Sequence record: ON528732 | From: Shigella phage ESh22 | Length of the DNA stretch: 64,000 nt | Strand: one strand, 5' to 3' | In this document: positions 27,463-63,445 of the stretch, piece after piece | Layout: each line of letters begins with the position of its first letter | How positions within the stretch are numbered: the stretch's first letter is position 1 | Notes under the pieces: generated by a model | Database searches by the model: none | What the model was told of the DNA's origin: nothing | What the model saw: only the letters and a program-made list of their open reading frames with translations | Program-made: the position numbers and the translations under genes

Positions 27463-28266
27463 TTAGTGAATCTGGTTAGAGTCCAGTTTTTCTTTTTCAG
27501 AGATAGCCTGAAGAGTCTCAACAAACTCATCACCGAAGTGGATAGCAATTTTCTCTTGGAGTACTGCTGCACCAGTCTGCATAATGACTTCGCGTAGTGC
27601 TTCACCACTTACATCACCAGCAATCTGTTCAACAAACTCGATAGGTGCATCAATCAGTTGAGCGACTTCAAACAGAGCGTGGATACCCATTACAGTGATG
27701 ATTGATGGGACCAATGCGGTAAGTTTAACCTGAATCTCATCAAGTCCATGTTCAGCTTCACGCGCAACAACCTCTTTAAGTTGCTCACTAGTAAGGGCCA
27801 CCATCTCCAGCACTCGCTCAAAGATATCTACGAATCCCCAATCAAGTTGTTCATAGCGTGGAAGTTTATCTTGAACACGCTTCTCAAGAACAGCCATAAC
27901 ACTTGCAATTGAGTTGATAATCAGTTCAAAGGTAGCATCTTCAGAGAAGTTAAGGATTCCTTCTTTCTCTTCCTCAGAAAGAACTTTGAAGTCACCAGTC
28001 TGCATGTTGTCAAAGATATAACCAGCAAAGGCATCTACACCAACCGCTACAGATGCCAGAGCTAGTTTACGGTCACTTAGAAGGAGTTTAACTTGCGAGC
28101 GAAACGATGACTCATCAGAGATATCTCCATTAACCTGATATGATTCAGGCATTACCTTGGAACTAAATGTGTTGCTACGCATTACAATAGCAAGACTTTC
28201 AATTGTATTGAGCATAAAGTTGCTATCAATACCTTTTGAGGACAGCATTTCATTTACAGTAGTCAT
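27463..28266 (-). CDS. hypothetical protein (267 aa)
   Basis: ORF track; first or second gene of the minus-strand transcription unit leaving the divergent region. Confidence 0.5.
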   Translation of the reverse strand: MTTVNEMLSSKGIDSNFMLNTIESLAIVMRSNTFSSKVMPESYQVNGDISDESSFRSQVKLLLSDRKLALASVAVGVDAFAGYIFDNMQTGDFKVLSEEEKEGILNFSEDATFELIINSIASVMAVLEKRVQDKLPRYEQLDWGFVDIFERVLEMVALTSEQLKEVVAREAEHGLDEIQVKLTALVPSIITVMGIHALFEVAQLIDAPIEFVEQIAGDVSGEALREVIMQTGAAVLQEKIAIHFGDEFVETLQAISEKEKLDSNQIH

Positions 28267-28267
28267 A

Positions 28268-28690
28268 TTAATTCTCTCTTATTTTGTTAATAGTTAGTCG
28301 TGATAATCTTAAGCTTTCTTGTGAAGAGAAGTCAAGTCCTTTTTCAGACCTTGGGAAGTAATTCCTGTCCCATGTATTCTCTGCATCCTGAAGCAGTTGT
28401 GATAGACTATCTAAATCCGTTCCATTTTGCAACTTATTTTTTAAGGTATCTATCAAAAAGATAGTATCTTTTGCTTTACGTCTTTCTGAAGATATCTCTT
28501 TCATGTGCTCAAAGACTGAACACTTCATCTTATCGTCGTACCCTTCTGACAACTCTATCTCATGCTGCACATCAACCATACGTCGATGATGGAAAGCATA
28601 TTCCTTCTGTGCTTCTAAGTCAAGCCTTTCAAGTTTCTCTAAAGCATCAATGAAGTTTTGTATATCTGGGTGAATGTACATCCTCTGCAT
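28268..28690 (-). CDS. hypothetical protein (140 aa)
   Basis: ORF track. Confidence 0.5.
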   Translation of the reverse strand: MQRMYIHPDIQNFIDALEKLERLDLEAQKEYAFHHRRMVDVQHEIELSEGYDDKMKCSVFEHMKEISSERRKAKDTIFLIDTLKNKLQNGTDLDSLSQLLQDAENTWDRNYFPRSEKGLDFSSQESLRLSRLTINKIREN

Positions 28691-28949
28691 AATTGCCTCT
28701 ACTAAGTTTCTATAAAGATTTTAATCTCTTATCTTTACGTATTCTATACGTATAACTTTAAAGCTTTTAAAAGACTATTAAAAATCTTTTAAGGGTTTTA
28801 AAGAATCTGTATAGTTAACCTGTAAAGAGAGTCTATTAAGATAAAACCCACTCCGCAAAGATTAACACCTTGTCAAGTGCTTTGTCAACTTGCTTTTTCA
28901 TAAAAATTGGAGTAGGGTATTAAGCAGTATGATTTGAGAGGGAGTTAAA
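28691..28949. promoter_or_regulatory. divergent intergenic control region (259 nt, AT-rich) between the minus-strand early block and the plus-strand polymerase block
   Basis: Strand switch; two TTGTCAA direct repeats 10 nt apart (TTGACA on the minus strand), several TTTAAAG repeats; GAGGGAG RBS before the polymerase ATG. Confidence 0.45.
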
Positions 28950-31649
28950 ATGAACAATGTAGATTTTGAGAACTTACATTTGGTTGGTGATACAGAAACT
29001 GACGGGTTGCTGCTTGAGTTTACAAAAGCTCACGTTATGGCATTCGCAGATTACAAAGATGATAGTGATGAACCTGCTGTGTGGGTTTTCACTGATGAGC
29101 CTATCCTTGGTCACAAGTATACAAAATACATCAAAGGTGGTTTGCGTGAAGGTGTGGAGTTTGCATTGAAAGCCAAACGCCTTTGTATCCACAATGGTCT
29201 TGGTTATGACTGGTGGGTGTTCAACCATATTGCACCTGACCTGTGGAACTTTGATAATCCTAAGTGTAAACCTTGGAGTGACTTCTTTCAGGATTCACTT
29301 ATCCAATCTCGTGTGCAGTGGATGGATAGACCTACACCAAAAGGCTACAAGGGTGCTCATGGCTTGGCTGCATGGGGTGCTCGTGTCGGTGTTCGTAAAC
29401 CAGAGATTGAAGAGTGGGGTGTGTGGAACGCTGATATTCTTAACCGTGTTGTTGAGGATATTCGAATCAACGCCAAAGCAAAACGTGCTATGGATAATGA
29501 ATACCTTAAGCTTAAGAAGTGTGGTGTAGATACTTACGAAACCTACATGCGAGCTAAAGAGACTTCTTTCTGGATGAGTCAACAAGCTATTAATGGTTGG
29601 AAAGCTAACATTGACCTTATGAAGTCCTGTGTAGAAGAACTGGATAAGATGACTTCTGAGTTAGCCTCTGAAGTTGAACCGTTCCTACCTCCGACTATTA
29701 AGACGAAAGGTAAAGTAACTGGTGAAGAGTTTGCCAAGGCATGGAATGAGTATGTTGAAACATTTGGTCATGTAGATGGTTTGAAACGTATCACAAAGTA
29801 TCCAAAGACAAAGTATCGTGAGCAGATGCGTGAAGGGGAACTGAAGACGTACCCTATCAAGCCATATGGGAAACCAACTACAAAGATTTTCAACATTGAG
29901 AAACGTAATTGCTACACTCCAACTAACACTGTCACTGGCGAAGAGTACAGGGAAGGTTTTGTAGCAATGAAAGATGCTCGTGCAATCTGCAATGAGTTGA
30001 ATGCTAAGGTTGGCAAGAAGTGTAAGGATTGGAAGCCAGTTAAGACAGTTAAAACTGTGAAGTACTACAATAACCACGTAGTAAATCACTTTGAAATGGA
30101 GTCAAGCCGTTACACAGGTCTTGTTGATGCACCTTATACACCAATTGAGTTTGAAGTTTCACGTATGACTCAAGTTGCAGTGGTGAAGGAATACTTGAAA
30201 TCTGTTGGCTGGATTCCTGATGATTGGAACTACAAAAAGGATTCTGATAACCGTCCAATCAAGGTATGCCGCTTCAAAGATAATAAGAAGATGATTCGTA
30301 AACATCCTAAGTGGGATGAGATGGTTGAACGTTGTGGATTGAACTACATTGAGCATGAAGGGGTTCATTACATTGAGTATAACTGGTCTGTTAGGAAGTA
30401 CACAGATTTGCTTGAGCCTTGCTTGATTCGTACTTCACCTAAACTTACTGAATCTTCTTATGACACCATTGAAGGTGAACTTGGACAAAAGATTGCGAAG
30501 TACTATACTTTGATGCACCGACGTAGAACTATTGAGAACTCAAAAGATGACGAGAAAGGTTGGTTAAACCAGATTCGTCCAGATGGTCGCTTGAGTGCTG
30601 GTGCAATGGTGTTTGGTACTTCAACTGGTCGTATGACACAGTATGGTATTGTGAACGTACCTTCTGGGGCTGCTGTTTACGGGGAACCAATGAGGGCAGT
30701 CTGGATTTGTGAAGAAGGAACCAACGTAGTATCCGTTGATATGAACTCTGCACAGCTTGTGTTACTGTGTAACTTTATGGGTGATAAAGAGTTCACCAAA
30801 GCAGTAACAGAAGGTAAGGAAGAAATTGAGTTTATTCGTCAAGAAGATGGTCGCTATTACTGCAAACACTTCGACGAATACCTTAACCCAGAAGTTGACA
30901 AGTATCTGCGTTATGACTCTGAAAACGACTTGTACGTAGTCTATTCAGGCACTGATGCTCACACACTGAACAGTATTTACTTCAGCTTGAATGATGAGCA
31001 GGATATCTTGACTTGTCGTATGACTCAGGATGAGAATCTTCTCCATGAGATTAGTAAGGGTCGTAAGAAAGCTAAGAACGGTATCTATGCACTGCTGTTC
31101 GGTGCGGGTGATGAGAAGTTTGCTAAGACCATCAAAGCTTCAACTACTCAAGAAGGTGCATTGACTAAGCAGACTTACTTTGTTCGTTTGCCGAAGATTA
31201 AGAAACTGATTGATAACTTAGAAGCTGACTTTAAAGCAACTAAGAAAGCTCTTGAAGAGGTCTTTGGTAAAACTGCTGCAATTGCTAAAGGTGGATTTGT
31301 TCAGGTTGCTGGGGCGTGGTTGTGGTGTAAATCTCCACACAAACTCTTGAACTATCTGTTGATGGGTTCAGAAGCACAAGTTCAGAATGAAGCAATCAAC
31401 CTTGCTTGTCGTCGTATGATTGATGAAGGTTTGATGAAACTAAATGGTCGTAAGCCAGCTATCGGTGCTCGTTTACTTTGTGCTTACCACGACGAAACAA
31501 GCTGGGAATGTCCAGAAAGCATGACAGCAGAAGTTAAGGCAGTAACTGACTGGTATTATGGTCAAGCTTCTAAAAACTTGGGACTGAAGAAGGATACTTT
31601 GGTAACGGGTACTGGTAAGGTTGGTAAATCGTGGCTTGAAGTCCACTAA
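28950..31649 (+). CDS. DNA polymerase, family A (Pol I-like) with 3'-5' exonuclease domain
   Basis: 899 aa; Exo I 'GDTETDGL'; polymerase motif A 'VVSVDMNSAQLVLL', motif B 'RKKAKNGIYALLFGAG', motif C 'YHDE'. Confidence 0.85.
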   Translation: MNNVDFENLHLVGDTETDGLLLEFTKAHVMAFADYKDDSDEPAVWVFTDEPILGHKYTKYIKGGLREGVEFALKAKRLCIHNGLGYDWWVFNHIAPDLWNFDNPKCKPWSDFFQDSLIQSRVQWMDRPTPKGYKGAHGLAAWGARVGVRKPEIEEWGVWNADILNRVVEDIRINAKAKRAMDNEYLKLKKCGVDTYETYMRAKETSFWMSQQAINGWKANIDLMKSCVEELDKMTSELASEVEPFLPPTIKTKGKVTGEEFAKAWNEYVETFGHVDGLKRITKYPKTKYREQMREGELKTYPIKPYGKPTTKIFNIEKRNCYTPTNTVTGEEYREGFVAMKDARAICNELNAKVGKKCKDWKPVKTVKTVKYYNNHVVNHFEMESSRYTGLVDAPYTPIEFEVSRMTQVAVVKEYLKSVGWIPDDWNYKKDSDNRPIKVCRFKDNKKMIRKHPKWDEMVERCGLNYIEHEGVHYIEYNWSVRKYTDLLEPCLIRTSPKLTESSYDTIEGELGQKIAKYYTLMHRRRTIENSKDDEKGWLNQIRPDGRLSAGAMVFGTSTGRMTQYGIVNVPSGAAVYGEPMRAVWICEEGTNVVSVDMNSAQLVLLCNFMGDKEFTKAVTEGKEEIEFIRQEDGRYYCKHFDEYLNPEVDKYLRYDSENDLYVVYSGTDAHTLNSIYFSLNDEQDILTCRMTQDENLLHEISKGRKKAKNGIYALLFGAGDEKFAKTIKASTTQEGALTKQTYFVRLPKIKKLIDNLEADFKATKKALEEVFGKTAAIAKGGFVQVAGAWLWCKSPHKLLNYLLMGSEAQVQNEAINLACRRMIDEGLMKLNGRKPAIGARLLCAYHDETSWECPESMTAEVKAVTDWYYGQASKNLGLKKDTLVTGTGKVGKSWLEVH

Positions 31650-31710
31650 TAGTGTTGACAAGGTGCTCATGGAAGAGTACCATATACTCTATATTGTATA
31701 GGAGACTTGT

Positions 31711-31911
31711 ATGACTATTTCAGAAATTGAAGTTCAACTGCAATGTGCTGGATATTCTCAAAGTGAGATTGAGGCTATGTGCATCATCATTTGCAGTAGC
31801 CATAAGCACCTCAAGCTTTCTAATGAAAATCTTTTCAAGGTTGATATTTTTATCGCTGGGGGCAAGATTATCAAGGATAAGACAGGCTACCTTAAAGGTG
31901 AACGTCTATGA
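31711..31911 (+). CDS. hypothetical protein (66 aa)
   Basis: ORF track; AGGAGA RBS. Confidence 0.45.
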   Translation: MTISEIEVQLQCAGYSQSEIEAMCIIICSSHKHLKLSNENLFKVDIFIAGGKIIKDKTGYLKGERL

Positions 31912-32120
31912 GCCACCGTGGAAGAACCCATCTCGCCATGATGCAAGGTGCTTCAAAAGATACTATCAAGAATCGGAAGAAAACTCTTTTTGACAGAATG
32001 AATAGACTCATTGATAATGCGAGCCTACCTAACTCTGAAAAGGTTTTCTTGAAAGGGAATCTGAAGAGTATTGCACAGGAACTTATTGACATTGAATTTT
32101 GGAGAAATCAAAATGAGTAA
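31908..32120 (+). CDS. hypothetical protein (70 aa)
   Basis: ORF track; ATGA start/stop overlap with the upstream gene. Confidence 0.45.
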   Translation: MSHRGRTHLAMMQGASKDTIKNRKKTLFDRMNRLIDNASLPNSEKVFLKGNLKSIAQELIDIEFWRNQNE

Positions 32121-32361
32121 AGAGCAAGAAGCAATAGATATCTTTAAAAATGACGATAAGTCAATAGCTTATATCTCAGAAGCTTGGTGCAGAGGGCTAG
32201 GTTATGACTGGTATCTTTTCCTATGTGCTAAAAAGGATGTTAAACCAGTTGATGAAACCAGATTCAAAGAACTGTATAATATCTGTCAAGAAGGTTATGA
32301 AGAACATTACGAAGGTTCTTTGAATCCTGTAAATTCAAAAGCTTCAGATTTATTTTATTGA
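32113..32361 (+). CDS. hypothetical protein (82 aa)
   Basis: ORF 32071..32361 trimmed to the ATG at 32113 (MSKEQEA) with GGAGAAA RBS. Confidence 0.45.
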   Translation: MSKEQEAIDIFKNDDKSIAYISEAWCRGLGYDWYLFLCAKKDVKPVDETRFKELYNICQEGYEEHYEGSLNPVNSKASDLFY

Positions 32362-32371
32362 GAGGTTTGAA

Positions 32372-32617
32372 ATGTTAAAATTATTGATACCAGCTTTAGT
32401 AGTCCTACTGGTTGGATGTAACCCTTCTTATGAGAATAAGGATGCTTCTTACAGACTTCCTCCAGAAATGCAAGACTGCAAGATTTATAAACTTAATGGT
32501 GATGCCATTAGCAGGGATGTTATTGTAGTTCGCTGCCCAAATTCTCAGACTACAACTTCTTACAAGTATGGAAAGAATAGTCAGTCACACACCACAGTTT
32601 TTGATGGAGGATATTGA
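32372..32617 (+). CDS. small lipoprotein (81 aa)
   Basis: Signal peptide with lipobox 'LLVG-C'; GAGAGG RBS. Confidence 0.5.
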   Translation: MLKLLIPALVVLLVGCNPSYENKDASYRLPPEMQDCKIYKLNGDAISRDVIVVRCPNSQTTTSYKYGKNSQSHTTVFDGGY

Positions 32618-32618
32618 T

Positions 32619-32825
32619 ATGCAGGTTCTGGTAAACTTTATCTATAAGTATGAAAACATCTTCAGCACTATGACTGAAGGTCAACGCAATCCAGTTATCC
32701 CACGAGAAGGGGAGACTGTTGAGATTAATGATTGGAACCACAGAGTTGCAGAGGTCAAGCATAAACTTAAAGATGATTATGACCACCAAGTTGTAAATGT
32801 GTATTTAGAAGGTAAGTGGCAATGA
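32619..32825 (+). CDS. hypothetical protein (68 aa)
   Basis: ORF 32568..32825 trimmed to the ATG at 32619 (MQVLVNF) with GGAGGA RBS. Confidence 0.4.
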   Translation: MQVLVNFIYKYENIFSTMTEGQRNPVIPREGETVEINDWNHRVAEVKHKLKDDYDHQVVNVYLEGKWQ

Positions 32826-32916
32826 GAATCTTACATATCATCTCTGAAGATTTTGGAGGGTGCTCTTGGCACTCATTTTTCACAAAAGGTTGTCTAGCTT
32901 GTGAGGCACGTAATAA

Positions 32917-34017
32917 ATGACAATTCTGTACAAACAAAATAAAGATGGTTCTTTCAACGTCTGGTCATGTGTTGCTGTAGGTGATAAAGTCGTCACAACT
33001 TATGGTAAAGAAAATGGCAAGATGATGTTTGAAGAGTACACAGCAGAATCTAAGAACATCGGTAAGAAGAATGAGCGTAATGCTGAACAGCAAGCTCTCT
33101 TTGAAGTTTCTGCAAAGTACAAGAAGCAAGTAGACCGTAAAGGTTATGCTTACACAAAGTCTGAAGCAGAGAACGTTGAAAAGGTTGGTGTACAGCTTGC
33201 TCACGATGCTGTAAAGATTAGTCACGCAAAATACCTGAAGTTCCCTGCTGACGCTCAACCTAAACTTGATGGTGTTCGTTGCAGGATTTCAAGAGATGTT
33301 GATACAGTAAGCTTCACGGCTTATTCTCGTGAAAACACTGTTTATAATGTACCAGCAGAGCTAATCCCAGATTTGTTCCTAATGCTGAAGTGTCACCCAC
33401 AAGTTGAAGATTTTGATGGTGAGATTTACGCTCATGGTTGGGACTTAGAGGATATTGTATCCATGATTAAGAATACTGACAATCCAGACCGTCACCTTCT
33501 TAAGTTCTACTGGTATGATATCTGTGATAATACCAAGACTTGGCCTGAGCGTCGTGAAGTTATTGACAATTCACCTCTTGTTGAACTTGGTGAAGCTTGC
33601 AGGGTTGTTCCTGTACAGACTATCCGTGTTAATTCTTGGGAAGAGTTCGACAAAGCACATGATAATTGGGTTAAGCTGAAGTTTGAAGGGGCAATGTACC
33701 GTTCAATCTCCCCAGAATCCTTCTATGAGTGTGGTCACCGTTCTTACTTCCTGATTAAACACAAGAAGATGCACACTCAGGAGTTTAAAGTCACTGGTGT
33801 GAAGACTGACAAACGGGGTCATGGTAAGTTCGTTGTAGAGACTCTTCCTAACGTCTTTGTAGATGTTTCATGGAAAACTACCCATGAGAAGAAGAAGTAT
33901 CTTGCTGAACATCCTGAAGAGTTTATCGGTAAACCTCTGACGGTTCAGTTCCAGAAGATGACTCGTAAGGGGTCTTTACAGTTCCCTGTTGGGCTTGTTA
34001 TTAGAGATTATGAGTGA
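32917..34017 (+). CDS. ATP-dependent DNA ligase
   Basis: 366 aa; adenylation motif I 'KLDGVRC' (KxDGxR); size similar to T7-type ligase. Confidence 0.7.
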   Translation: MTILYKQNKDGSFNVWSCVAVGDKVVTTYGKENGKMMFEEYTAESKNIGKKNERNAEQQALFEVSAKYKKQVDRKGYAYTKSEAENVEKVGVQLAHDAVKISHAKYLKFPADAQPKLDGVRCRISRDVDTVSFTAYSRENTVYNVPAELIPDLFLMLKCHPQVEDFDGEIYAHGWDLEDIVSMIKNTDNPDRHLLKFYWYDICDNTKTWPERREVIDNSPLVELGEACRVVPVQTIRVNSWEEFDKAHDNWVKLKFEGAMYRSISPESFYECGHRSYFLIKHKKMHTQEFKVTGVKTDKRGHGKFVVETLPNVFVDVSWKTTHEKKKYLAEHPEEFIGKPLTVQFQKMTRKGSLQFPVGLVIRDYE

Positions 34018-34174
34018 TTACACTATGGGGATTGCAATTGCAGTAGTGATTATCGGTATCTTATTTTTCTCTTGGTTATACATGTAGAAAGTTGTTGACA
34101 TGAGATTCTTAGTGGGTATACTAGCAATATACAAGATATTATATAGGAACCCACTAGTTAGTTTGGAGGTAATT

Positions 34175-34555
34175 ATGAAAAAGCTTGCACTATGTCTCTT
34201 TGCAGTACTAAGCTTCAATGCTTATGCGGTTATGCCAAATATGGACTACGGTAAAGTTAAACTGGAGTCTTGTGAGCTTTCTCAAAAGATTGTTTCTAAG
34301 TCTGGAGAGTTAACTAAACCAATCACTCAAGAAACTTTTCAGGAAATGACAGACCGTACAACTGACCTCATCTACCACACTATGGGTGGTTACTACAACG
34401 ATGTGGCTGATATGATGGTTTCTGAGAATATTGATGTGCTAAGTTCTGAACAGATTTCTGAAACTAAAGCTGTAGAAGAACGTGTTACACAGTCTGTTTT
34501 AGATGGGTTTGAGTACTTTATCATTAACCGTCACTGCATGGGTCTGCCACAATGA
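34175..34555 (+). CDS. secreted/periplasmic hypothetical protein (126 aa)
   Basis: ORF 34100..34555 trimmed to the ATG at 34175 with GGAGGT RBS; signal peptide MKKLALCLFAVLSFNAYA. Confidence 0.45.
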   Translation: MKKLALCLFAVLSFNAYAVMPNMDYGKVKLESCELSQKIVSKSGELTKPITQETFQEMTDRTTDLIYHTMGGYYNDVADMMVSENIDVLSSEQISETKAVEERVTQSVLDGFEYFIINRHCMGLPQ

Positions 34556-34755
34556 AAAAGAACATCTGTAGAATCGACTATGGTGAAGTTGTTGACGACG
34601 ATGGAGTAGTTATTTACAGAGTTTGGGCTAAGGATTTTAATACAGTTGTAGAGGCTCTAGACCACTTCGTCAACGGGACTCGTGAGAATGTAAGAGCAAC
34701 CAGTATAGATTCCTTAATAGACACTTCGCGTAAACGGAGGAAGAAGGATGAATAA
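34552..34755 (+). CDS. hypothetical protein (67 aa), basic C-terminus
   Basis: ORF track; ATGA overlap. Confidence 0.4.
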   Translation: MKKNICRIDYGEVVDDDGVVIYRVWAKDFNTVVEALDHFVNGTRENVRATSIDSLIDTSRKRRKKDE

Positions 34756-35047
34756 AGTCTTCGACCCTTATGCACCCCAAGATGATTGGGAAGCTGATAG
34801 AGAGTCTGAAATGGAAGCATACATAGCTGGAATGGATGTGGATGAGATGAAGTTCTATATCTCTGAGAAACTACACATTCACATGAAAAGAAACAATCTA
34901 TCACAAGTTCAGGTAGCAAAGATTTGTGAGATTTCTCAAGCAAGAGTTTCAAACATCTTAAACGGTAGCGGTAAAGTTTCTCTTGACTACATGATTAGTG
35001 TTTGTGATAAACTTGGTTTAAACTTCAACTTAAGTAAGGCAGATTGA
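34748..35047 (+). CDS. helix-turn-helix DNA-binding protein (XRE/Cro-like HTH)
   Basis: 99 aa; 'LSQVQVAKICEISQARVSNILNG' matches the HTH_XRE pattern. Confidence 0.5.
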   Translation: MNKVFDPYAPQDDWEADRESEMEAYIAGMDVDEMKFYISEKLHIHMKRNNLSQVQVAKICEISQARVSNILNGSGKVSLDYMISVCDKLGLNFNLSKAD

Positions 35048-35049
35048 TT

Positions 35050-35409
35050 ATGAAACGTAAGAATGCAATTTTCAACGACAACTTTGCACTTGGTTTCTAC
35101 GGGAAACCGACGAGTGCTGAGAAGTCATTTGGTGAAGAACTCTTGGGAGTCCTGAAGCAGATGTATCAAGAAGGAAGAATCAAGCATACTGAGAAGAGGC
35201 GTATTGCTGGTTATATGACAATTGGCTCCGCTATCTCTAACATTAAGCTTGAGACAACTTGTGCTCATGATGTTCGTAACAAGTTCATCAAAGAACTGGT
35301 TGGCAATATTGATGGTGTATCTGTTAAGGCTATCTGGCTAAATGTTGATGGGACTAACTACACCACGTTCACCTTTAAAAATGAGGATATTAAATGTCTC
35401 TTCCCGTAA
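35050..35409 (+). CDS. hypothetical protein (119 aa)
   Basis: ORF 35044..35409 trimmed to the first ATG. Confidence 0.45.
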   Translation: MKRKNAIFNDNFALGFYGKPTSAEKSFGEELLGVLKQMYQEGRIKHTEKRRIAGYMTIGSAISNIKLETTCAHDVRNKFIKELVGNIDGVSVKAIWLNVDGTNYTTFTFKNEDIKCLFP

Positions 35410-35897
35410 AACTGAACTTGTACTTTGGATACAATGTATTACAAGATTGTATTCTAAGCCTCCCTAAATCAGATTATCGTGCTGATTTAGGTTCTGTGAA
35501 ACGTGCTGCTCACTTCAACAACGTGATTTTTGGTCTCCAGAGTCTTTATCGTTGGCTTGAAGAAGACGGTCGCCTTAACGAGTACCTTCATAACCTAAAG
35601 ATTGCCAGAGAGAAAGGTCAAATGGGTTATGAGCTTCTTCCAAGACTCTACAAAGTTGGTAGTGTTAGTGAGCAACGTTGGAATGAGCAAGCTGTTGAGA
35701 GCTATAAGAGAGCCAATATAACTATTGGTACAAGAGCTTGGAAGGAATATGACGCTCTGCGTGAAATTATCTATCAAACAGTTGGTAAGAGAGTCTCTCA
35801 AGGTCTTTCTTATGACCAAAAGATTGACTGGAAGACTCAGAAGTGTATAAAATTCTTCAAGTTTGATAATGACAAAAACACCTTTGTAGAGGTATGA
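35394..35897 (+). CDS. hypothetical protein (167 aa)
   Basis: ORF track. Confidence 0.45.
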   Translation: MSLPVKLNLYFGYNVLQDCILSLPKSDYRADLGSVKRAAHFNNVIFGLQSLYRWLEEDGRLNEYLHNLKIAREKGQMGYELLPRLYKVGSVSEQRWNEQAVESYKRANITIGTRAWKEYDALREIIYQTVGKRVSQGLSYDQKIDWKTQKCIKFFKFDNDKNTFVEV

Positions 35898-35898
35898 C

Positions 35899-36420
35899 AT
35901 GCAAAAGATTGGAATCAACTTACTGCTCCCAGAAGCATCAATGTTGAGAGGTATTATCACCACTCACCTTGAAACCAAAAAGTCACAAGAAGGTGAAATA
36001 CTGATTAAAACAAACTATGATGCAGGAACTATTGAGTTGGTTGATGAAGATACTGGGGACTCACTTTGTATTCTTCCTGCTCATCTGTTCGCAACTGAGT
36101 TCAGAGATGCTAAATCAATCTCTGTAAAGACTGAAGCAAGCATTGACTTGTATGAAGGGACTCAGTACCCTAAATCCTTCAAAGCTCTTTTGAACATCTT
36201 CATAGATGATATCAGAGAGGTTGTGAAGCCATACATAGGCCGACATGTAGTTAACGCAACCTGTGAAAACAATTATTACATTCGCTTAGTAGGTGACTTA
36301 GGTTCTATGGACTTCCTAAGCTTTATACCCAAGCACTTTGAAGATTTCTTATCAAGTGAGTGTGATGATTTAGACTTCGTAGTTGATATCCAGCAAACTT
36401 TTAAGGTAAACAAAAAATGA
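35899..36420 (+). CDS. hypothetical protein (173 aa)
   Basis: ORF track. Confidence 0.45.
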   Translation: MQKIGINLLLPEASMLRGIITTHLETKKSQEGEILIKTNYDAGTIELVDEDTGDSLCILPAHLFATEFRDAKSISVKTEASIDLYEGTQYPKSFKALLNIFIDDIREVVKPYIGRHVVNATCENNYYIRLVGDLGSMDFLSFIPKHFEDFLSSECDDLDFVVDIQQTFKVNKK

Positions 36421-36689
36421 AACTTTTTGAGAAGTTTGAGCAATGCTACAACCAAGATGGTGAACCTCTAAAATGCCCCCATTGTGGGGGTACAAATTTC
36501 CAAGGTGAGATTACAGAGATTGTGGCAGGGAACGTAGCAGAAGAGTACACACGTTGCACTGATTGTGACAACATCATCTCTTTCTGGGCTTATGGCAGTT
36601 ATCAACCACAACCACGCTTAGTATTCCATCCAGTAAAAACTGTGAAGAATATTGCTAACTGGTTTATTGTAAAAGGGTTCACACAATGA
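36417..36689 (+). CDS. small zinc-ribbon protein (90 aa)
   Basis: CPHCGG ... CTDCD Cys4 arrangement. Confidence 0.45.
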   Translation: MKLFEKFEQCYNQDGEPLKCPHCGGTNFQGEITEIVAGNVAEEYTRCTDCDNIISFWAYGSYQPQPRLVFHPVKTVKNIANWFIVKGFTQ

Positions 36690-37231
36690 TTAAATTGGTT
36701 TTTGCAAACGGTCTTAACGGGGAGTTTGGTTGCCCCTCTGGTATGCCTTGGCCTCGTAATAAGCAAGATATGCAAGAGTTCAAGAGGATTACTACAGGTC
36801 AATTGGTAGTTATGGGTAATGACACTTTCAAGAGTCTTGGAAGTAAACCTTTACCAGACCGTGATAATCTTGTTCTGACAAACTCATTACCGTATGAAGG
36901 TATAGATTTTGGTAGAGAAGATGTAATGTTTGCTAAGGTTCACCCAGACGCTTTTGGGGCATTCTTAAAACATCTGGATAGTAGTATTGAGCAAGATGTT
37001 TGTATAATTGGTGGAGCAGGTATTCTTATCCAAGCTTTACCATATGCAGATGCAATTTGTCAAACATATATCCGTGAAGTGACTGAAGAAGCAACTGTTA
37101 AGCTGCCTTATAAGGGTTTCTTTGAGCACTTGTATGACGAGTCAACTTTTGCTAGAATACAGTCAAAACCGTCGAAAGATGACAGCGTTGTATTCAACAT
37201 TTATGTTCCACAAGTAAGAGGACGTTTCTAA
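36686..37231 (+). CDS. frd: dihydrofolate reductase
   Basis: 181 aa; N-terminal 'MIKLVFANGLNGEFGCPSGMPW' DHFR signature; immediately upstream of thymidylate synthase. Confidence 0.8.
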   Translation: MIKLVFANGLNGEFGCPSGMPWPRNKQDMQEFKRITTGQLVVMGNDTFKSLGSKPLPDRDNLVLTNSLPYEGIDFGREDVMFAKVHPDAFGAFLKHLDSSIEQDVCIIGGAGILIQALPYADAICQTYIREVTEEATVKLPYKGFFEHLYDESTFARIQSKPSKDDSVVFNIYVPQVRGRF

Positions 37232-37232
37232 T

Positions 37233-38132
37233 ATGTCACAAGCAGATGTAAGCTACAAAGGGATTCTCAACCATGTTCTTTCTGTTGGTGAAGAACGTAA
37301 AACCAGAACTGGAAAGGTTATTACAACGTTTGCACCTCCAGAGTTTCGTTTTGACATGCGTAGTGGTTTCCCATTAATTACTTCAAAGCAAACCTTCATG
37401 CGTCAAGTTTTAGGTGAAGCATTGTGGTTTTTGAATGGTGAAAACAAGTTGGGTGATTTACGCTACAGAACTTGGGGAGAGAACGATGGAGAGCGTTGGA
37501 CTATCTGGACAGATGATTTTGAACGTTGGTTAAAGACAACCTATGCAACTGAAAATGATTGGTTGGAAGACGCAGGTGGGCGAATCTATGGTGTCCAATG
37601 GAGGTCTTTTGAGGGGCATGGTGGGGTTGTCGTTGACCAGTTGAGTAATCTTGTGGATAAGATGAAAAAGTCTCCTACAGACCGTTACATGCTGGTTAAC
37701 GCATGGAATGCAGCAGATATCTCAAGCAACTCTATGGCATTAGCACCTTGTCATGTTCTTTTCCAGATTTATATCTCGAATACTGGAGAGGTTGACTTGA
37801 AATGGTATCAACGTTCATGTGATACGTTCTTAGGTTTACCATTTAACATTGCTTCTTATGGGTTTATCTTGCAAGTTCTTTGTAAGATGACAGGATTAAC
37901 TCCACGTTATCTTGTTGGTACTTTTGGTGATACCCAGATTTATCTGAACCATATGCAGCAAGTTTATCAGTTGTTAGGTAACGAAGATTACCCAGCACCT
38001 AAGTTTGAGATTGATGTTGAGTTAAACAGTATTGATGACCTGAAGCACTTAACAGCAAGTGACTTTATAGGTGGTTTGAAAGATTACCGACATGCTGGTA
38101 AGATTGAAGCTCCCTTGTCAGTAGGTAAGTAG
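37233..38132 (+). CDS. td: thymidylate synthase
   Basis: 299 aa; active-site region 'LAPCHVLFQIY' with catalytic Cys; uninterrupted ORF (no intron). Confidence 0.85.
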   Translation: MSQADVSYKGILNHVLSVGEERKTRTGKVITTFAPPEFRFDMRSGFPLITSKQTFMRQVLGEALWFLNGENKLGDLRYRTWGENDGERWTIWTDDFERWLKTTYATENDWLEDAGGRIYGVQWRSFEGHGGVVVDQLSNLVDKMKKSPTDRYMLVNAWNAADISSNSMALAPCHVLFQIYISNTGEVDLKWYQRSCDTFLGLPFNIASYGFILQVLCKMTGLTPRYLVGTFGDTQIYLNHMQQVYQLLGNEDYPAPKFEIDVELNSIDDLKHLTASDFIGGLKDYRHAGKIEAPLSVGK

Positions 38133-38135
38133 ATA

Positions 38136-38166
38136 CAAAAAAGGCTCCTTTTTACGGGAGCCTTAG
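38136..38166. terminator. bidirectional intrinsic terminator between convergent td (+) and the minus-strand late genes
   Basis: AAGGCUCC-loop-GGGAGCCUU hairpin flanked by A6 on one side and U-rich sequence on the other. Confidence 0.55.
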
Positions 38167-38168
38167 CA

Positions 38169-38543
38169 TTATTTCTTTTTAACATTCTGTGTATTTTGTT
38201 CGGTAATTGCTTGTAAAGCTGATACAGACTGTGCTAAGTTGTTCACACTATCTGAGAATTTATCAAGGGTTTTGGTCAACTTAGCGTTTTCCCCTTTAAC
38301 GTTCTCTAACTGCACTTTCTGGTTTTCCATCCCTAACTGAAGGAGTTTCATATCAGACTGTAAATCACGAATAGCTGAATAGTTACCTTTTGAGTAACCA
38401 TCCAACTGTTGTAACTTTGTGTTGATAGAAACTTCTTGCTTTCCATCAGAGACCTGCATCGTAGTGTACATACCAATTACACTGAAAATACCTACAACAA
38501 TTGCGCCAATGTTGTTCTTAAAAGCCTCTTCAATCCACTTCAT
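38169..38543 (-). CDS. membrane protein with N-terminal TM helix and coiled-coil periplasmic domain (124 aa); lysis-related candidate
   Basis: TM 'IGAIVVGIFSVIGMYTTM' then heptad-rich charged sequence; directly follows a small membrane protein, downstream of the tail-fibre genes. Confidence 0.4.
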   Translation of the reverse strand: MKWIEEAFKNNIGAIVVGIFSVIGMYTTMQVSDGKQEVSINTKLQQLDGYSKGNYSAIRDLQSDMKLLQLGMENQKVQLENVKGENAKLTKTLDKFSDSVNNLAQSVSALQAITEQNTQNVKKK

Positions 38544-38737
38544 TATTTTTCACCCTTAAAAGCCTTTTCCAAGGTATCTACAAATTCATCATCAATAGGT
38601 GTGTCTGTTTTACTCGCAAGGTATCTTGCAAGCTTGAAGAACACTTTTTCAATCATGTATTCGCTAAGAAGAGAAAGTAGAAGCTTCCAGAAGAATGCCC
38701 CAAGATTTTTCAAGAGGATTGCTAGAATGGTTGGCAT
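38543..38737 (-). CDS. small hydrophobic membrane protein (64 aa); holin candidate
   Basis: N-terminal hydrophobic segment 'ILAILLKNLGAFFWKLLLSLL', charged C-terminus; AAGGTGA RBS. Confidence 0.35.
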   Translation of the reverse strand: MPTILAILLKNLGAFFWKLLLSLLSEYMIEKVFFKLARYLASKTDTPIDDEFVDTLEKAFKGEK

Positions 38738-38823: not shown

Positions 38824-41199
38824 TTATGCAGTTCTTACCCAAGCCATTAGTTTAATGTAAGTGTTAAGAACACTGAATGCTGCACCAGAACCAGTCGCAC
38901 CAGTGTCACCACTGAATGTGTGGTTGTGTCCACCAATGCCTACACCGTGAGCATGAGCACCTACCCAACTTGTTCTACCTGTCCAAGTTCTGGAAGCATA
39001 GAAGTTAACTGGCGCACCATAAGTGAAGTTAGAACCTGTCCAGCTATGCAAACCTTGGCTACCACTCATTGCAAAAGCACCGTCTGCAACGTAGAACGAG
39101 TTATTATCACTTCTAAACCATCCAAAGTTACCAGAGATTTCCATATTACCTCTGTCATGGTCGTGAGCACCCTGACCATCTGTGTACTTAGTTCCATAGT
39201 CAAACCAAGAAGTTGTCCCAGAGAAGCCGTGAGTGTGTGCAGGGATGTGACCAACACTTAATGCAACCGTATCAGCACCACCAAGACCTTTCACATCAGA
39301 GCCATTTTCAGAACCAATCCTAATAGTTCTGTTTGCACCCTCAGTTAAGTAAGTCCAAGTAGTGCCTGGGAAAGCTGTATTTGGGTTGACATTAGAAGCA
39401 AAGAACGTCACAATACCAACTGGATACACTTTCTTAAGGTCTGTAGCATCAGTTACAGCGGAAGCAATACGTTGGTCTACTTCAGCCTTGGTGTAAGCAC
39501 CAAGTTCAGAAGGTGTAGGCTTAGCCTTATCTGTATAGATTTTAGTCCAAAACTCTTCAAAACCAACACTATCCCTTGCTGTTCTATAGTAGATTCCACC
39601 ATTTTTGTATTCGAACCTAAGCTGTGCAGAAGGTGTAGATGCACCAATTCCAAGGTGCATTTGGTAAACTAAGTGAGATGAACCACCACTTGCACTTGTA
39701 ACATTGTACAAACCTGTTTTTGCATCCCAAGCAACACCTGTGCCATCACCTACTTCTGTTCCAGTTCCAGATACACCAGACAACATATATCTTGAGTTTG
39801 CAGCAGATTGTGTGTAGTATCTTGAGTCAAAGTTTGACCAATCGCTTGGTCTTACTTGTCCAACAATATTCACATGTGTATTCACATCTAAATCAGTACC
39901 AATATTGATTGCCTTTCCTGTTACATCATTGTTAAGTACCACATTGTTTTGACCAGCATCACCAATACCCAACCACCATCTCCTGCTCCCATTAGCATTA
40001 TGTGCAGACATGTAGATTCCAGAGTCTTGTACTGTTGCCTGTAGTCTAAAAGGATTGTCGCTGTCAGTATTGATAGTCTGTGGACTAGTAAAAACGTTTG
40101 CAGCATTAGTTCTTGCAAGAACGTTCGTCAAAGAGCTTGGAACATATCTTGTATCAAAGTTAGAAAAGTCACTTGGTTTTACCTGACCAGCTACATTGAT
40201 AGCTTTGTTAAATGAAAACTCTGTAGCAATTTTCAAGTTAACATTTGTCATCTGGTTTGCTAAAACAATCTCAGACTGCGTACCATCTGGTTGACCTACA
40301 TACCAAGTTCCTGTCCCAGCACTGTTATAACCACGCATAAATAATGCAGCATTCTCTGTAACCGCTCTTAAGTTAAGTGCATTACTATCTGCAATAACAT
40401 AAGTCTTACCATTGAAGTTGTTAACCCCAACAAAGTTATTACTTGCATTAAGTTTTGCAAATCTCTGGTCAGCAGCAGTCTGTGTAAAGAATCTTGCATC
40501 AAGGTTATTCCAGTTATTAGGCTGAACCTGTCCATTGATTTCAAAATTCTTATCAACACTAACAGAGTTTGTGCCAAGAGTCAACGTAGCACCCTTGCTA
40601 TTAACTAATGTAACATCAGTACTAGAAGTCAAGTTACCAACTGTGAATCTTAAAGCATTATTTGAATCCCTTGCTTCAATATATGCTCCACCATCTGGTA
40701 AGATACTTTTAAGTGTTAGACCAACACCGTTGATATTAATGATTTGTCTTGCCAAGAAAGTATTTTCAGTTTCCTTCATAGCATATCTTGCATCATTTTC
40801 AATATTAGTTCTCATACCTAATTCATTAGGAGATGGTTTATTAAGTGTGTGATAAACTGTTGCAGACCTTGTGGCATCGTTTACAGTTAATCTTAAAGCA
40901 CTCGCATTAATTCTAAAGGTTTTGGCAGTGTCACCAAGAATAACCTCAGAAGAACCTGTTGGGTCTAATAAGTCTTTTCCACCGTATCTTAATTTAACGA
41001 TTCCAAGATTCCCTACCATATCTCCACCAGTTAGTTGTAAGAATCTTTCTAGTTTGAAAGAGGCAAGGAAATTTGCATAGGTCATTTTACGGTCTTCATC
41101 ACCAAGCATATCAGACCTTTTGATAACTCTTAGGTGAAGTAAATCTTCTGAGCGAACTGTGTCAATACTGTTTAGCTCACTTAGCTTATATTCAGCCAT
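38824..41199 (-). CDS. tail fibre protein (long, His-rich C-terminal receptor-binding region)
   Basis: 791 aa; Gly/Ser/Thr/Asn-rich repetitive body; C-terminal HxH repeats (HIPAHTHGF, GAHDHD, GAHAHGVGIGGHNHTF); ends '...MAWVRTA' like the neighbouring fibre. Confidence 0.7.
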   Translation of the reverse strand: MAEYKLSELNSIDTVRSEDLLHLRVIKRSDMLGDEDRKMTYANFLASFKLERFLQLTGGDMVGNLGIVKLRYGGKDLLDPTGSSEVILGDTAKTFRINASALRLTVNDATRSATVYHTLNKPSPNELGMRTNIENDARYAMKETENTFLARQIININGVGLTLKSILPDGGAYIEARDSNNALRFTVGNLTSSTDVTLVNSKGATLTLGTNSVSVDKNFEINGQVQPNNWNNLDARFFTQTAADQRFAKLNASNNFVGVNNFNGKTYVIADSNALNLRAVTENAALFMRGYNSAGTGTWYVGQPDGTQSEIVLANQMTNVNLKIATEFSFNKAINVAGQVKPSDFSNFDTRYVPSSLTNVLARTNAANVFTSPQTINTDSDNPFRLQATVQDSGIYMSAHNANGSRRWWLGIGDAGQNNVVLNNDVTGKAINIGTDLDVNTHVNIVGQVRPSDWSNFDSRYYTQSAANSRYMLSGVSGTGTEVGDGTGVAWDAKTGLYNVTSASGGSSHLVYQMHLGIGASTPSAQLRFEYKNGGIYYRTARDSVGFEEFWTKIYTDKAKPTPSELGAYTKAEVDQRIASAVTDATDLKKVYPVGIVTFFASNVNPNTAFPGTTWTYLTEGANRTIRIGSENGSDVKGLGGADTVALSVGHIPAHTHGFSGTTSWFDYGTKYTDGQGAHDHDRGNMEISGNFGWFRSDNNSFYVADGAFAMSGSQGLHSWTGSNFTYGAPVNFYASRTWTGRTSWVGAHAHGVGIGGHNHTFSGDTGATGSGAAFSVLNTYIKLMAWVRTA

Positions 41200-41211
41200 T
41201 TATAAATCCTC

Positions 41212-41242
41212 TTTCTAGGGGCTGTGCAGCCCCTTATAAAAT
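41212..41242 (-). promoter_or_regulatory. GGGGCUG-CAC-CAGCCCC hairpin element between the two tail-fibre genes (no U-tract)
   Basis: Same GGGGCUG/CAGCCCC stem as the elements at 4190 and 9049; flanked by a TAGAAAG box and the AAGAGG RBS. Confidence 0.4.
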
Positions 41243-41244
41243 AA

Positions 41245-42420
41245 TTACGCAGTTCTCTTCCAAACATATACAACATAAGAAGGTTGCTCAATATTAAATG
41301 CTTGTCCAGCACCAAATGCACCAGTTGTGCCTGAGTGAGTGTGTTCAGAAGATTGAACTGTCACAGTACCAGAGTGTCCATGCGAACCAATTACAACACT
41401 GTGTCCATGTGCTCCAATATACACACTGTGAGAGTGGTTACCACCAACTGAAGAGTTAACGTTGAATGTATGTGTATGAACCCCATCAAAGTCTGTATAT
41501 GACGCATTACCAATACCTGCATCAGCCGATGCTGTGATAGCGTTCACACCACCCCTGTCAGAACCCCTCAATGGAATCCTGTGGCTGTGACTACCAGCAC
41601 TGCTTACAGAACCATTAACGTTATGAGCGTGGCTTCCAGAGTCATTTGTGGCCTTAGAATCATAATCAAAACTTGATGTGTTCCTAATCCCATAGTCAAA
41701 GCTAGAAATTACTACTGTTGCATTATGAGAGTGCCCACCACCAGTTAGCAACACAGAGTGTGTGTGACTTGGAATGTTATTTTGTGTAAGTGTTGCAGTA
41801 GCAGAACCAAATACTGATTCTACAGGTCTTGTATCTGTGTCATAACCAACAAGAGACCTTCCTTTAGAAACTAACTCCCAAGTACCACCACAAAGTAAAT
41901 ATGTAGTTGGGTTCGCAGGGTTAACTGATAAATGAATAGTACCAATTGGATAGCTATCCTGAATAGCTCTGTATAAAGCATTCACAGCTTTTGCAGTAGC
42001 ATACTTATCAGCATCTTCAGAATAAGAGTTTGAATATGTCCAGTTTTGGATATTAGACAAACCTACTTGAATCTTGTTGGTGTTGTGAGGATTATTCTTG
42101 TCATTAATGTGGTTCTGGATAAGAGTATTGACTTCATCACTTGATAGAATATTAAGATTCTGTCTAGCCTCTTCAACACTGACCACATCTGACAAGTTAT
42201 TAGCAGCCACTAATTGGAGTGCGTTAACAACATTCCCAAGGTCTACGTGAACCTTTGTAACACCGTGTGGGTTATTTCTCAAAGATGCGTGTGGAGCAAG
42301 TAATTGCTCAAGTGTGCATCGCCTATCCTCAATACCTTGCTTAAGGTGAAAGATATCACTTAAATCAATAGGTAATGAGGCTTGAGGTAATGCACTAATT
42401 TGAATTTCACCGACTGCCAT
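41245..42420 (-). CDS. tail fibre / receptor-binding protein with dense HxH repeats
   Basis: 391 aa; 'GGGHSHNATV', 'GSHAHNVNG', 'GSHSHRIP', 'VHTHTFNVN', 'GNHSHSVYIGAHGHSVVIGSHGHSG', 'EHTHSG'; C-terminus '...YVVYVWKRTA'. Confidence 0.7.
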   Translation of the reverse strand: MAVGEIQISALPQASLPIDLSDIFHLKQGIEDRRCTLEQLLAPHASLRNNPHGVTKVHVDLGNVVNALQLVAANNLSDVVSVEEARQNLNILSSDEVNTLIQNHINDKNNPHNTNKIQVGLSNIQNWTYSNSYSEDADKYATAKAVNALYRAIQDSYPIGTIHLSVNPANPTTYLLCGGTWELVSKGRSLVGYDTDTRPVESVFGSATATLTQNNIPSHTHSVLLTGGGHSHNATVVISSFDYGIRNTSSFDYDSKATNDSGSHAHNVNGSVSSAGSHSHRIPLRGSDRGGVNAITASADAGIGNASYTDFDGVHTHTFNVNSSVGGNHSHSVYIGAHGHSVVIGSHGHSGTVTVQSSEHTHSGTTGAFGAGQAFNIEQPSYVVYVWKRTA

Positions 42421-42422: not shown

Positions 42423-42722
42423 TTAGCTCCCTTTATATTCATATGTGTAAAGGTTAGTAGTGCTGGTGTGTGCAGTCCCTGTTACTGTGTCAATTAATTC
42501 CCAACCATTGGCAACTAAATCAGGTTGCTCCGTAGCAAATGAACGAACCTCTCCAACCGTACCATTTACTTTATTAAGCAAATAGTTGATAATATAGTTG
42601 AACCACTGACGACCCATAGGCTCACCCCTTAATAGGCCAGTGGCTTGAATTTCTGGAGGTGGTAAAACTTTAAGCTGGTTACCATCAGCATCCACTGTGT
42701 CTGTAGACCATGAAAGAGACAT
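42423..42722 (-). CDS. hypothetical tail/baseplate-associated protein (99 aa)
   Basis: ORF track; inside the structural operon. Confidence 0.45.
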
Positions 42723-43618
42723 TATGAACTTCCTTCTTGTTGAGATTTATCTTTTCTGCCTTTGACGATTTGGGCGACTTCTGCCATAACCCCATAATCA
42801 CCACCCGCTACTGTTTCTTTACCAGCAATAAAATAGTCGTTGCTATTGTTTGTTTTGCTGACTTTTAAATAATCTTTACTGGCACTGCCACCAGTTTTAT
42901 CAACTCTGACATAACCATCTCTTACACCTGCATCTGCAAAACTACCTAATTTATTTGCTTCTAGGGAGCCACCTGTGTTGTTCGTAATTAGACCCTTGTT
43001 AGTGTTGGTTACGAACCAGTTGTTGCTCTCATCAGTGATTGCCAGAGATGAATCAGCAACCTCTACAGGAGTCCAAGCAGTACCATTTAAGGTAACATCT
43101 CTAAGGATAACTGCTGAACCAATAGTTGTTGCAGCAATCTTAGAAAGCGTGTATGCTGTATCTAACACATTATTACGAGTGTTTACACGGACAACAATCC
43201 CACCAGTCTTTGGCGTAATATGCTCAAAAATCTGGCTGAATGAGGCATCGTAAAGAGTCATGACAGCTTTTTGTAAAAAGCTTGGTGTAGTGTCAGAACG
43301 TCTTAAGAAAATTTGAATGTAGAGGATAGCTCTGTAAGTGTCATCATCAGCACCAATAGGTCTAGGGACTTTAATTAAAGCCCCGATGTTATCAAGTTGT
43401 GTGCCAACACCTACACGAATATTCCTTTCAGTATATAACTGATTACTAATATCCTCTAATAATTGTAACTCATCTGTGATAGATTTCAATAGGCTTGTGT
43501 AGATAAACTTGTCTTTGAATTGAGTTACAGTTCTTTCGTCCAATGTTTTCTCATAAAAGTTTTCAATCTTTTTAAACATTGTTACTCCTTGGCAATTGTA
43601 TACTGTGAGCTTTCCCAA
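42722..43618 (-). CDS. baseplate/tail-fibre-associated structural protein (298 aa)
   Basis: ORF track; position between the baseplate J-like gene and the fibres. Confidence 0.45.
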
Positions 43619-62160: not shown

Positions 62161-62237
62161 TGGAGTATCGGAAGGGACTTGAACCCTTATATACCTGTTT
62201 TGCAGACAGGCGCATAATCCATTTCTGCCACCGACAC
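62161..62237 (-). tRNA. tRNA-Cys (anticodon GCA)
   Basis: Hand-folded cloverleaf: acceptor GUGUCGG/CCGAUAC, anticodon stem CCUGU/ACAGG with loop CUGCAAA, T-arm AAGGG-UUCAAGU-CCCUU, encoded CCA. Confidence 0.75.
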
Positions 62238-62244
62238 ATTAATT

Positions 62245-62337
62245 TGGAGGAAGATACCAGACTTGAACTGGTACGCCGATTTCTCGGTTACTGGCAGTTT
62301 AGCAAACTGCTCCCTTACCTTTTAGGGTTAATCTTCC
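62245..62337 (-). tRNA. tRNA-Ser (anticodon GCU), type II with long variable arm
   Basis: 93 nt; acceptor GGAAGAU/AUCUUCC perfect 7 bp, anticodon loop UUGCUAA, variable-arm hairpin CCGA-GAAA-UCGG, T-arm ACCAG-UUCAAGU-CUGGU, encoded CCA. Confidence 0.75.
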
Positions 62338-62340
62338 AAA

Positions 62341-63066: not shown

Positions 63067-63091
63067 CTCTTTCATTATGCACCTATAAAAT

Positions 63092-63167
63092 TGGTAGCCC
63101 ATCGGGATTTGAACCCTGTTCTCATGTTTTTCAGACACGCGCTTTAACCATATAAGCTAATTGAGCT
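63092..63167 (-). tRNA. aberrant tRNA-like gene (anticodon-loop candidate CUGAAAA, GAA/Phe-like); possible pseudo-tRNA
   Basis: Clear T-arm/3' end (GGG-UUCAAAU-CCC ... CCA) and anticodon hairpin CGUGU-CUGAAAA-ACAUG, but no hand-fold gives consistent acceptor and D-arm pairing (5' half and 3' half imply different acceptor stems); 5' boundary uncertain. Confidence 0.35.
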
Positions 63168-63174
63168 GTTGAAT

Positions 63175-63251: not shown

Positions 63252-63282
63252 ATTTAAGGACTCTCGTAAGAACCCTTAGAAG

Positions 63283-63358: not shown

Positions 63359-63364
63359 AATATT

Positions 63365-63443: not shown

Positions 63444-63445
63444 AT

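Follow-up and report, generated by a model that had tools for sequence, protein, structure and literature searches.

Two adjacent tail fibre genes of Shigella phage ESh22 probably encode side fibres with phage T4 gp37-type receptor-binding tips

What do the histidine-rich C-terminal parts of two neighbouring tail fibre genes in Shigella phage ESh22 do, and why do the two proteins end in nearly the same residues? The genes lie on the minus strand between positions 38824 and 42420 of a 64-kb stretch of sequence record ON528732 (the window, part of a ~86-kb genome). The first to be transcribed (41245..42420) is an open reading frame (ORF) of 391 amino acids (aa), the orthologue of Sf14 gp52 and Bas63 gp26, and the second (38824..41199) is an ORF of 791 aa, the orthologue of Sf14 gp53 and Bas63 gp27; we call their products the short and the long fibre. 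A preliminary description of this DNA took both for tail fibres with metal-binding His-x-His (HxH) repeats and took their common ending for a duplicated or exchanged receptor-binding tip. It is very probable, in our view, that these genes code for a short and a long side fibre, each with a collar, needle and head tip of the T4 gp37 type.

The 3.6-kb fibre stretch is 99.2% identical in DNA sequence to Shigella phage ESh21 and 93–96% identical to Sf13–Sf19 and other Mooglevirus members (megablast), and in these matches (ESh21 and the Sf13–Sf19 group) both genes carry a tail-fibre annotation. By these similarities the window belongs to Mooglevirus (Ounavirinae, Felix O1 group), that is, to a Felix-O1-like Shigella/E. 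coli myophage. The short fibre is 96% identical to the Sf14 protein (391 aa, 14 positions differ) and matches the tail-fibre family phrog_2097 (E 4e-125); its sole Pfam match is Gp10_C, with 63 bits. The long fibre is 88% identical to its Sf14 counterpart (792 aa), matches the tail-fibre family phrog_4277 over its full length, and has Pfam matches to gp37_trimer (in three stretches), gp37_C and, weakly, Gp10_C.

HxH motifs are far more frequent in both proteins than their compositions would give. The short fibre has nine, in two clusters at aa 219, 230, 264 and 278 and at aa 315, 329, 338, 347 and 360, and the long fibre has four, at aa 655, 679, 749 and 758. In 20000 shuffles of each protein the mean number of motifs was 1.54 for the short fibre and 0.30 for the long one; nine were never reached in the former, and four were reached twice in the latter. 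Eighteen of the 25 histidines of the short fibre stand within HxH motifs, and the 34 residues that separate its two clusters contain none. Glycine, serine and threonine together make up 42–44% of the needle segments defined below and 16–24% of the N-terminal parts. Every motif string quoted in the preliminary description is present, so that HxH clusters in the Gly/Ser-rich C-terminal parts of both proteins are real, and the endings VWKRTA and AWVRTA read as it claimed (...YVVYVWKRTA in the short fibre, ...KLMAWVRTA in the long).

The closest characterized counterpart of these regions is the tip of T4 gp37, whose domain boundaries we take from PMC6957217. Its collar (D10) consists of residues 811–881 and 1010–1026, and its needle (D11, 882–1009) is an insertion in that collar; a tip subdomain (~932–959) is in turn inserted in mid-needle, and seven six-His sites bind iron through histidines that are essential to function (PMC6957217). 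Short fibre aa 147–363 match the structure of this tip (2XGF) with an E value of 1e-22, and in a BLASTP comparison with the complete gp37 sequence 121 aa align at 46% identity (E 1e-23). The motifs are in register as well: all seven T4 needle HxH (883, 915, 929, 966, 980, 989 and 998) pair with HxH of the short fibre, and the pair that flanks the head (278 and 315 in the short fibre, 929 and 966 in T4) is 37 residues apart in each, with no gap. Alignments disagree on T4 883, which they pair with either 219 or 230, and the short fibre has two surplus motifs (one of these two, and 360). For the long fibre the match to 2XGF is E 8e-4 with the single sequence and E 9e-11 with a profile of five long-fibre modules, so that the idea that both proteins are tail fibres with HxH motifs homologous to the metal-binding needle of gp37 is borne out. 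Both fibres thus resemble the gp37 tip in sequence, in the register of their HxH, in a collar split by a needle and in a similar ending; they differ in that T4 assembles its fibre from four proteins, of which gp37 forms the distal part, whereas each fibre in the window is a single protein.

The short fibre can be divided accordingly. Its first 145 residues (41986..42420, minus strand, as are all segments of both genes) comprise an N-terminal region, putatively baseplate-binding by comparison with the Bas63 structure, and a short helical shaft, with helices predicted at aa 68–106 and 143–156. The N-terminal half of the collar (aa 146–218, 41767..41985), with the motif YPIGT...GGTW, matches the T4 gp37 collar and T4 gp10 (2FKK, E 3e-7). 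It is followed by the outgoing needle (aa 219–280, 41581..41766), whose four HxH align with T4 gp37 883, 915 and 929, and by the head (aa 281–314, 41479..41580), the predicted receptor-contact region, which has no histidine, is the conservation minimum of the protein and aligns without a gap to the gp37 stretch between HxH 929 and 966. The returning needle (aa 315–362, 41335..41478) carries the other five HxH, aligned with T4 966, 980, 989 and 998, and the closing part of the collar (aa 363–391, 41248..41334), which ends in VWKRTA, aligns to the final positions of the Gp10_C profile and to IQPYITVYRWIRIA, the terminus of T4 gp10. Positions 5–139 of the 139-position Gp10_C profile match short fibre aa 156–390, which indicates a collar domain split by a needle and head of ~150 residues.

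The returning needle of the short fibre shows a 9-residue repeat (HSHSVYIGA / HGHSVVIGS / HGHSGTVTV), and a similar periodicity is present in T4 gp37 (HSHSVGIGA / HTHTVAIGS). At the DNA level, tandem 27-nt copies that are 74% identical (41374-41427, short fibre aa 332–349) encode SVYIGAHGH and SVVIGSHGH. Such tandem units, together with the similar periodicity in T4, suggest that needle length may change by unit duplication.

Conservation follows this division. Identity to the window protein across 42 orthologues is ~80–90% in the first 50 residues, 42–48% in the outgoing needle, 12–22% at aa 281–310, 53–65% in the returning needle and 72–76% in the last 20 residues, and the minimum falls exactly between the outgoing (219–280) and returning (315–362) sets of HxH. 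Among 54 relatives the HxH sites are retained in 40–53 sequences (those of the outgoing needle keep both histidines in 43–52), and nine is the commonest count (35 of the 54). W387 and R389 are invariant in all 54, and nearly all of these proteins end in W-x-R-T/V-A.

The C-terminal module of the long fibre has the same order of parts. The N-terminal half of its collar (aa 587–654, 39238..39441) aligns with that of the short fibre and is nearly invariant in five long fibres; both HxH of the outgoing needle (655 and 679, within aa 655–681, 39157..39237) are invariant in the same five. The returning needle (aa 749–760, 38920..38955), with HxH 749 and 758, aligns with T4 gp37 DHSHSVGIGAHTH (980 and 989), and the closing collar part (aa 761–791, 38827..38919) can be aligned position by position with the short-fibre end; its last nine residues, KLMAWVRTA, are identical in all five. 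Between the two needle segments lies an enlarged, aromatic-rich head region without HxH (aa 682–748, 38956..39156), 67 residues of which 19% are phenylalanine, tryptophan or tyrosine. It is the most variable part of the module: identity to Sf14 gp53 is 68% at aa 701–725, Bas63 and Michonne have two extra HxH here (Bas63 693 and 728) that the window phage, Sf14 and HY02 lack, and in many Felixounavirus long fibres the match to the last 209 residues is limited to the first 99 of these, that is, the collar and outgoing needle and not the head.

The C-terminal modules of the two fibres are homologous over their whole length. BLASTP aligns long fibre aa 588–791 with short fibre aa 153–391 at 27% identity (E 3e-14), and comparison of the five-member long-fibre profile with the 54-member short-fibre family (hhalign) gives 99.9% probability and E 2e-36, in an alignment that spans from the YPVG collar motif to the final residue.

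These comparisons suggest how the fibres might be built. By analogy with T4 and with the Bas63 and Sf14 maps, each fibre protein would be a homotrimer that docks on the baseplate by its N-terminus, and its C-terminal ~210–250 residues would form a T4 gp37-type receptor-binding module. In this module a long insertion interrupts a small globular collar whose fold is that of the T4 gp10 C-terminal domain; the chain would leave the collar, run outward through the needle strands to a distal head, and come back through the returning strands to a collar that is closed by the last ~30 residues. Each HxH, contributed by three chains, would place six inward-pointing imidazoles on the three-fold axis, where in T4 such a set holds one iron ion, and homology predicts up to nine ions in the short fibre and up to four in the long one; these metal rivets would set the register of the six-stranded needle and stiffen it, while the collar would anchor both ends of the insertion. 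The head would contact the receptor, at about aa 281–314 in the short fibre and aa 682–748 in the long. Because the chain runs out and back, the variable head falls in mid-module when the sequence is read linearly.

Several observations weigh against this architecture. An AlphaFold2 (AF2) prediction of the short-fibre monomer is of moderate quality overall (mean predicted local distance difference test score, pLDDT, 64; predicted template modelling score, pTM, 0.29), with pLDDT <50 in the head, and a Foldseek search of the Protein Data Bank (PDB) with this model returned T4 gp10 structures as the top matches, with low template modelling (TM) scores, and did not return 2XGF. The long-fibre Gp10_C score, 25.6 bits, is under the curated Pfam cut-off of 27. 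A tblastn search of the 64-kb window with gp38 and gp57A, both of which T4 gp37 requires for folding (PMC6957217), gave nothing better than E 1.2. We found no receptor assignment for either fibre in the literature, only general evidence that Ounavirinae depend on the lipopolysaccharide (LPS) core, and the authors of the Sf14 structure (Commun Biol 2025, PMC11821841) read a needle-like (C24-like) domain of Sf14 gp52 as central in the fibre and not at its tip. In favour of the split collar, the confident parts of the AF2 monomer are the two collar halves, aa 150–220 and 370–391 (block-mean pLDDT ~72–90; 80–90 at aa 146–218 and 85–87 in the closing part), and with this model the fold search appears useful only for the collar.

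If that reading of Sf14 gp52 applied to the proteins of the window, the needle-like domain would lie in mid-fibre with the gp10-like domain distal to it, and receptor contact would fall to the collar-like domain or to the needle's side. The internal position of the head in the linear sequence agrees with such an arrangement, but it is what an out-and-back chain predicts. In both proteins conservation is among the highest in the two collar halves, which fits a structural role and not specificity, and variability is concentrated in the head; we regard a needle in mid-fibre as improbable.

Still less probable, to the point where we give it little credence, is that the shared terminus is itself a receptor-binding tip, which the two fibre genes would owe to a recent duplication or exchange. 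In its favour the two proteins are homologous through the last residue and both end in R-T-A. Against it, the terminus lines up with the last positions of the Gp10_C collar profile and resembles the C-termini of T4 gp10 (...YITVYRWIRIA), gp11 (...VFYHFERTA) and gp37 (...FNYIVRLA), all of which have a common hydrophobic-x-R-x-A pattern, and the topology of the T4 tip puts the terminal residues at the base of the needle. The terminus, with its invariant W387 and R389, is among the best-conserved stretches of the C-terminal module, while nowhere is the protein less conserved than in the tip, between the HxH clusters. The possibility that the two genes were recently duplicated or underwent gene conversion was considered and rejected: the proteins are only 27% identical in these modules, DNA repeats between the genes are limited to short imperfect matches (14–34 nt, 68–93% identity), and the short-fibre needle resembles T4 gp37 (46%) more than it does that of its own neighbour. 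These three observations point to an ancient common origin of the two modules or to their separate acquisition. The proposal of a duplicated or exchanged tip thus fails; judged from the alignments, the W-x-R-T-A end is the closing strand of the collar at the needle base and not a receptor-binding tip, and the motif characterizes the fold family as a whole and is not a link between these two genes.

The weakest alternative, that the 391-aa protein is not a fibre and instead takes the place of T4 gp10 in the baseplate wedge, where it anchors another fibre, has in its favour the sole Pfam match (Gp10_C), the top Foldseek matches and the position of the gene directly after baseplate genes, but is hardly credible, since only the collar (aa 144–228) resembles gp10 and the remainder matches the gp37 needle far better (E 1e-22), T4 gp10 has no HxH motifs, and the counterpart of the 391-aa protein in the cryo-electron microscopy (cryo-EM) structures of Sf14 and Bas63 is a 430-Å fibre along the sheath.

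The T4 gp10 C-terminal domain (2FKK, Gp10_C), a fold found also in gp11 and in the gp12 collar, matches the collar halves of both fibres, their YPIGT...W motif and final W-x-R-x-A strand included; gp10 is a baseplate wedge protein and has a 40-residue loop in place of the needle-head insertion of the fibres. T4 gp12 has one HxH, at 445, compared with nine and four in the fibres of the window; the gp12 motif presumably binds zinc. Neither fibre matched the phage tail collar profile PF07484 at E values up to 0.1. The next structural match of the short fibre after gp10 is C24 of a Bizionia argentinensis prophage (6OV6), which has a needle-type tip; this match is weak (E 0.25, TM 0.17–0.26) and is not accompanied by a sequence match. 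C24 is cited for Sf14 gp52 in PMC11821841.

The rest of the long fibre is of other types. Its first 475 residues (39775..41199) form an N-terminal attachment region and a shaft of repeated units, putatively beta-helix, which match gp37_trimer in three stretches (E 1e-44) and have boundaries of the form G-Q-V-x-P-x-D/N-W/F-x-N-x-D-x-R-Y/F; the Bas63 long fibre has five T4 gp34-like beta-helix repeats (PMC12609058). One shaft repeat contains a mosaic block (aa 376–450, 39850..40074) that is replaced relative to Sf14: identity to gp53 is 28–40% within it and 92–100% in the flanking 25-aa windows. This block explains the two-piece megablast matches of 94% coverage; it looks like a cassette replacement within a beta-helix repeat, in line with the unexpected shaft variability reported for Felixounavirus (PMC12609058). 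Between the shaft and the collar lies a knob (aa 476–586, 39442..39774) with similarity to gp37_C (E 3e-18) and to the phage Mu tail fibre protein S (gp49/gp52, 8JU3), residues 327–429 of which match long fibre aa 476–581 (E 2e-21). In Mu the matched region is near the receptor-binding end (PMC11821841), whereas the long fibre has it as an internal knob, with the T4-type tip beyond.

Mu fibres consist of a fibre protein plus a chaperone, and Sf14 is reported to have no Mu-type fibre chaperones in its genome (PMC11821841). No Mu-type assembly (U/Tfa) gene was found 3' of the long fibre gene in the window, where the two downstream ORFs match PHROGs of unknown function. The absence from the window of recognizable homologues of gp38 and gp57A suggests that fibre folding may differ from that of T4, and the needles may fold unaided or use an unrecognized helper.

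In order of transcription this region contains genes for a Baseplate_J-like wedge protein, a second wedge protein, a 99-aa protein, the short fibre, the long fibre and two small ORFs; a bidirectional terminator and a convergent thymidylate synthase gene lie beyond these. This gene order is identical in Sf14, HY02, Michonne and Bas63. The 99-aa protein gene (42423..42722, minus strand), just upstream of the short fibre gene, matches phrog_4141 (E 7e-61) and occupies the position of Sf14 gp51 and bas63_0025; by family and position its product is the orthologue of the Bas63 gp25 long-fibre platform, which is T4 gp9-like (PMC12609058). A hairpin at 38141..38164, with a perfect 9-bp stem and T-runs on both strands, looks like a bidirectional terminator that closes the fibre operon; it sits between the operon and the convergent thymidylate synthase gene, where Michonne has a terminator annotated.

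The two small ORFs 3' of the long fibre gene (38543-38737, 64 aa, and 38169-38543, 124 aa, both on the minus strand) are present in every relative checked. Both have an N-terminal segment that is hydrophobic by eye, and the 124-aa ORF has a long C-terminal stretch that, also by eye, resembles a coiled coil. Annotations of the two ORFs in relatives are "putative holin" or hypothetical; the 124-aa ORF is the "putative holin" in Sf14 and Michonne, and a table in PMC11821841 gives its Sf14 orthologue gp55 (FDI99_gp102) as "Holin or lysozyme" and enters "Yes" for it. The two ORFs were considered as fibre-assembly proteins and rejected, only PHROGs of unknown function being matched.

Upstream, the ORF list starts the baseplate protein gene at 42722-43618 (minus strand) with a TTG, giving 298 aa, and ESh21, Sf14 and Bas63 annotate 285 aa; the PHROG match of this protein starts at residue 14, and from these two facts its real start is probably the ATG at residue 14. 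Elsewhere in the window, a block of plus-strand genes from ~28000 to 38132, among them those for dihydrofolate reductase (36686-37231) and thymidylate synthase (37233-38132), lies between minus-strand blocks, and the GC skew changes sign at both of its borders. Eight tRNA genes (Cys, Ser, Phe, His, two Gln, Leu and Arg) are clustered at the end of the window (62161-63843, minus strand); such a cluster is usual for Felix-O1-like phages, and this one includes tRNA-His.

Fibres of this kind have been described in two relatives. Sf14, also a Mooglevirus, has direct orthologues of both proteins, with the same lengths, gene order and endings; they are described as two long tail fibres, of ~430 Å and ~630 Å, that are folded back along the sheath, and in the accessible part of that text (PMC11821841) the term "HxH" is applied only to the central tail needle and not to the fibres. 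The short and long fibres of Bas63 (JohannRWettstein, a Felixounavirus), likewise 430 Å and 630 Å by cryo-EM (Sci Adv 2025, PMC12609058), end in VWQRTA and AWVRTA and are described in the same terms as used here, with T4 gp37-like tips of collar, HxH needle and head, a chain that doubles back at the head to the collar, and tips that are the variable regions (PMC12609058). Our recount of seven and six HxH in the Bas63 short and long fibres agrees with the published di-histidine counts (PMC12609058) and differs from the nine and four of the window: the Bas63 short fibre lacks two head-proximal outgoing HxH, and the long fibre of the window lacks the two head-proximal HxH of Bas63 and Michonne and has an aromatic-rich segment instead. 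A tail-fibre atlas preprint places Ounavirinae fibres in a class TC6, in which a gp10-like domain connects the rod to a T4-like needle tip. Since the architecture was published for Sf14 and Bas63 in 2025, our finding is real but ordinary and leaves current understanding unchanged.

We note one further possibility, which we advance only tentatively and think on balance unlikely: the long fibre could be a natural metal-depleted needle of the gp37 type, which has lost the two head-proximal HxH seen in Bas63 and Michonne, and both needles may fold without chaperones of the gp38 or gp57A type. If both hold, the tips of Ounavirinae fibres would self-assemble, a hydrophobic core could replace metal rivets in their needles, and the enlarged aromatic head of the long fibre might bind another class of receptor than the T4-like head of the short one.

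The heads of the two fibres are unrelated in length and composition, and thus the fibres probably recognize different surface structures; this difference makes the dual receptor specificity raised in the preliminary description plausible, and different receptors for the two fibres have already been proposed for Sf14 (PMC11821841). These structures most likely lie within the LPS, and the literature describes the Ounavirinae as generally dependent on the LPS core. In the short fibre the tip residues I933 and G942 of T4 gp37 are kept, but N937, G938, G940, G943, S947 and Y949 are replaced by G, S, R, V, T and S, respectively; as most of the essential T4 residues are not kept, a different ligand is expected. 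The fibres decide which strains of Shigella, E. coli and Citrobacter are attacked, and the position of the specificity residues therefore matters for host-range engineering and for the design of phage therapy. The residues to swap or mutate would be those in mid-module, at about aa 281–314 of the short fibre and aa 682–748 of the long, whereas the conserved W-x-R-T-A end would be scaffold, to be kept intact in chimeras.

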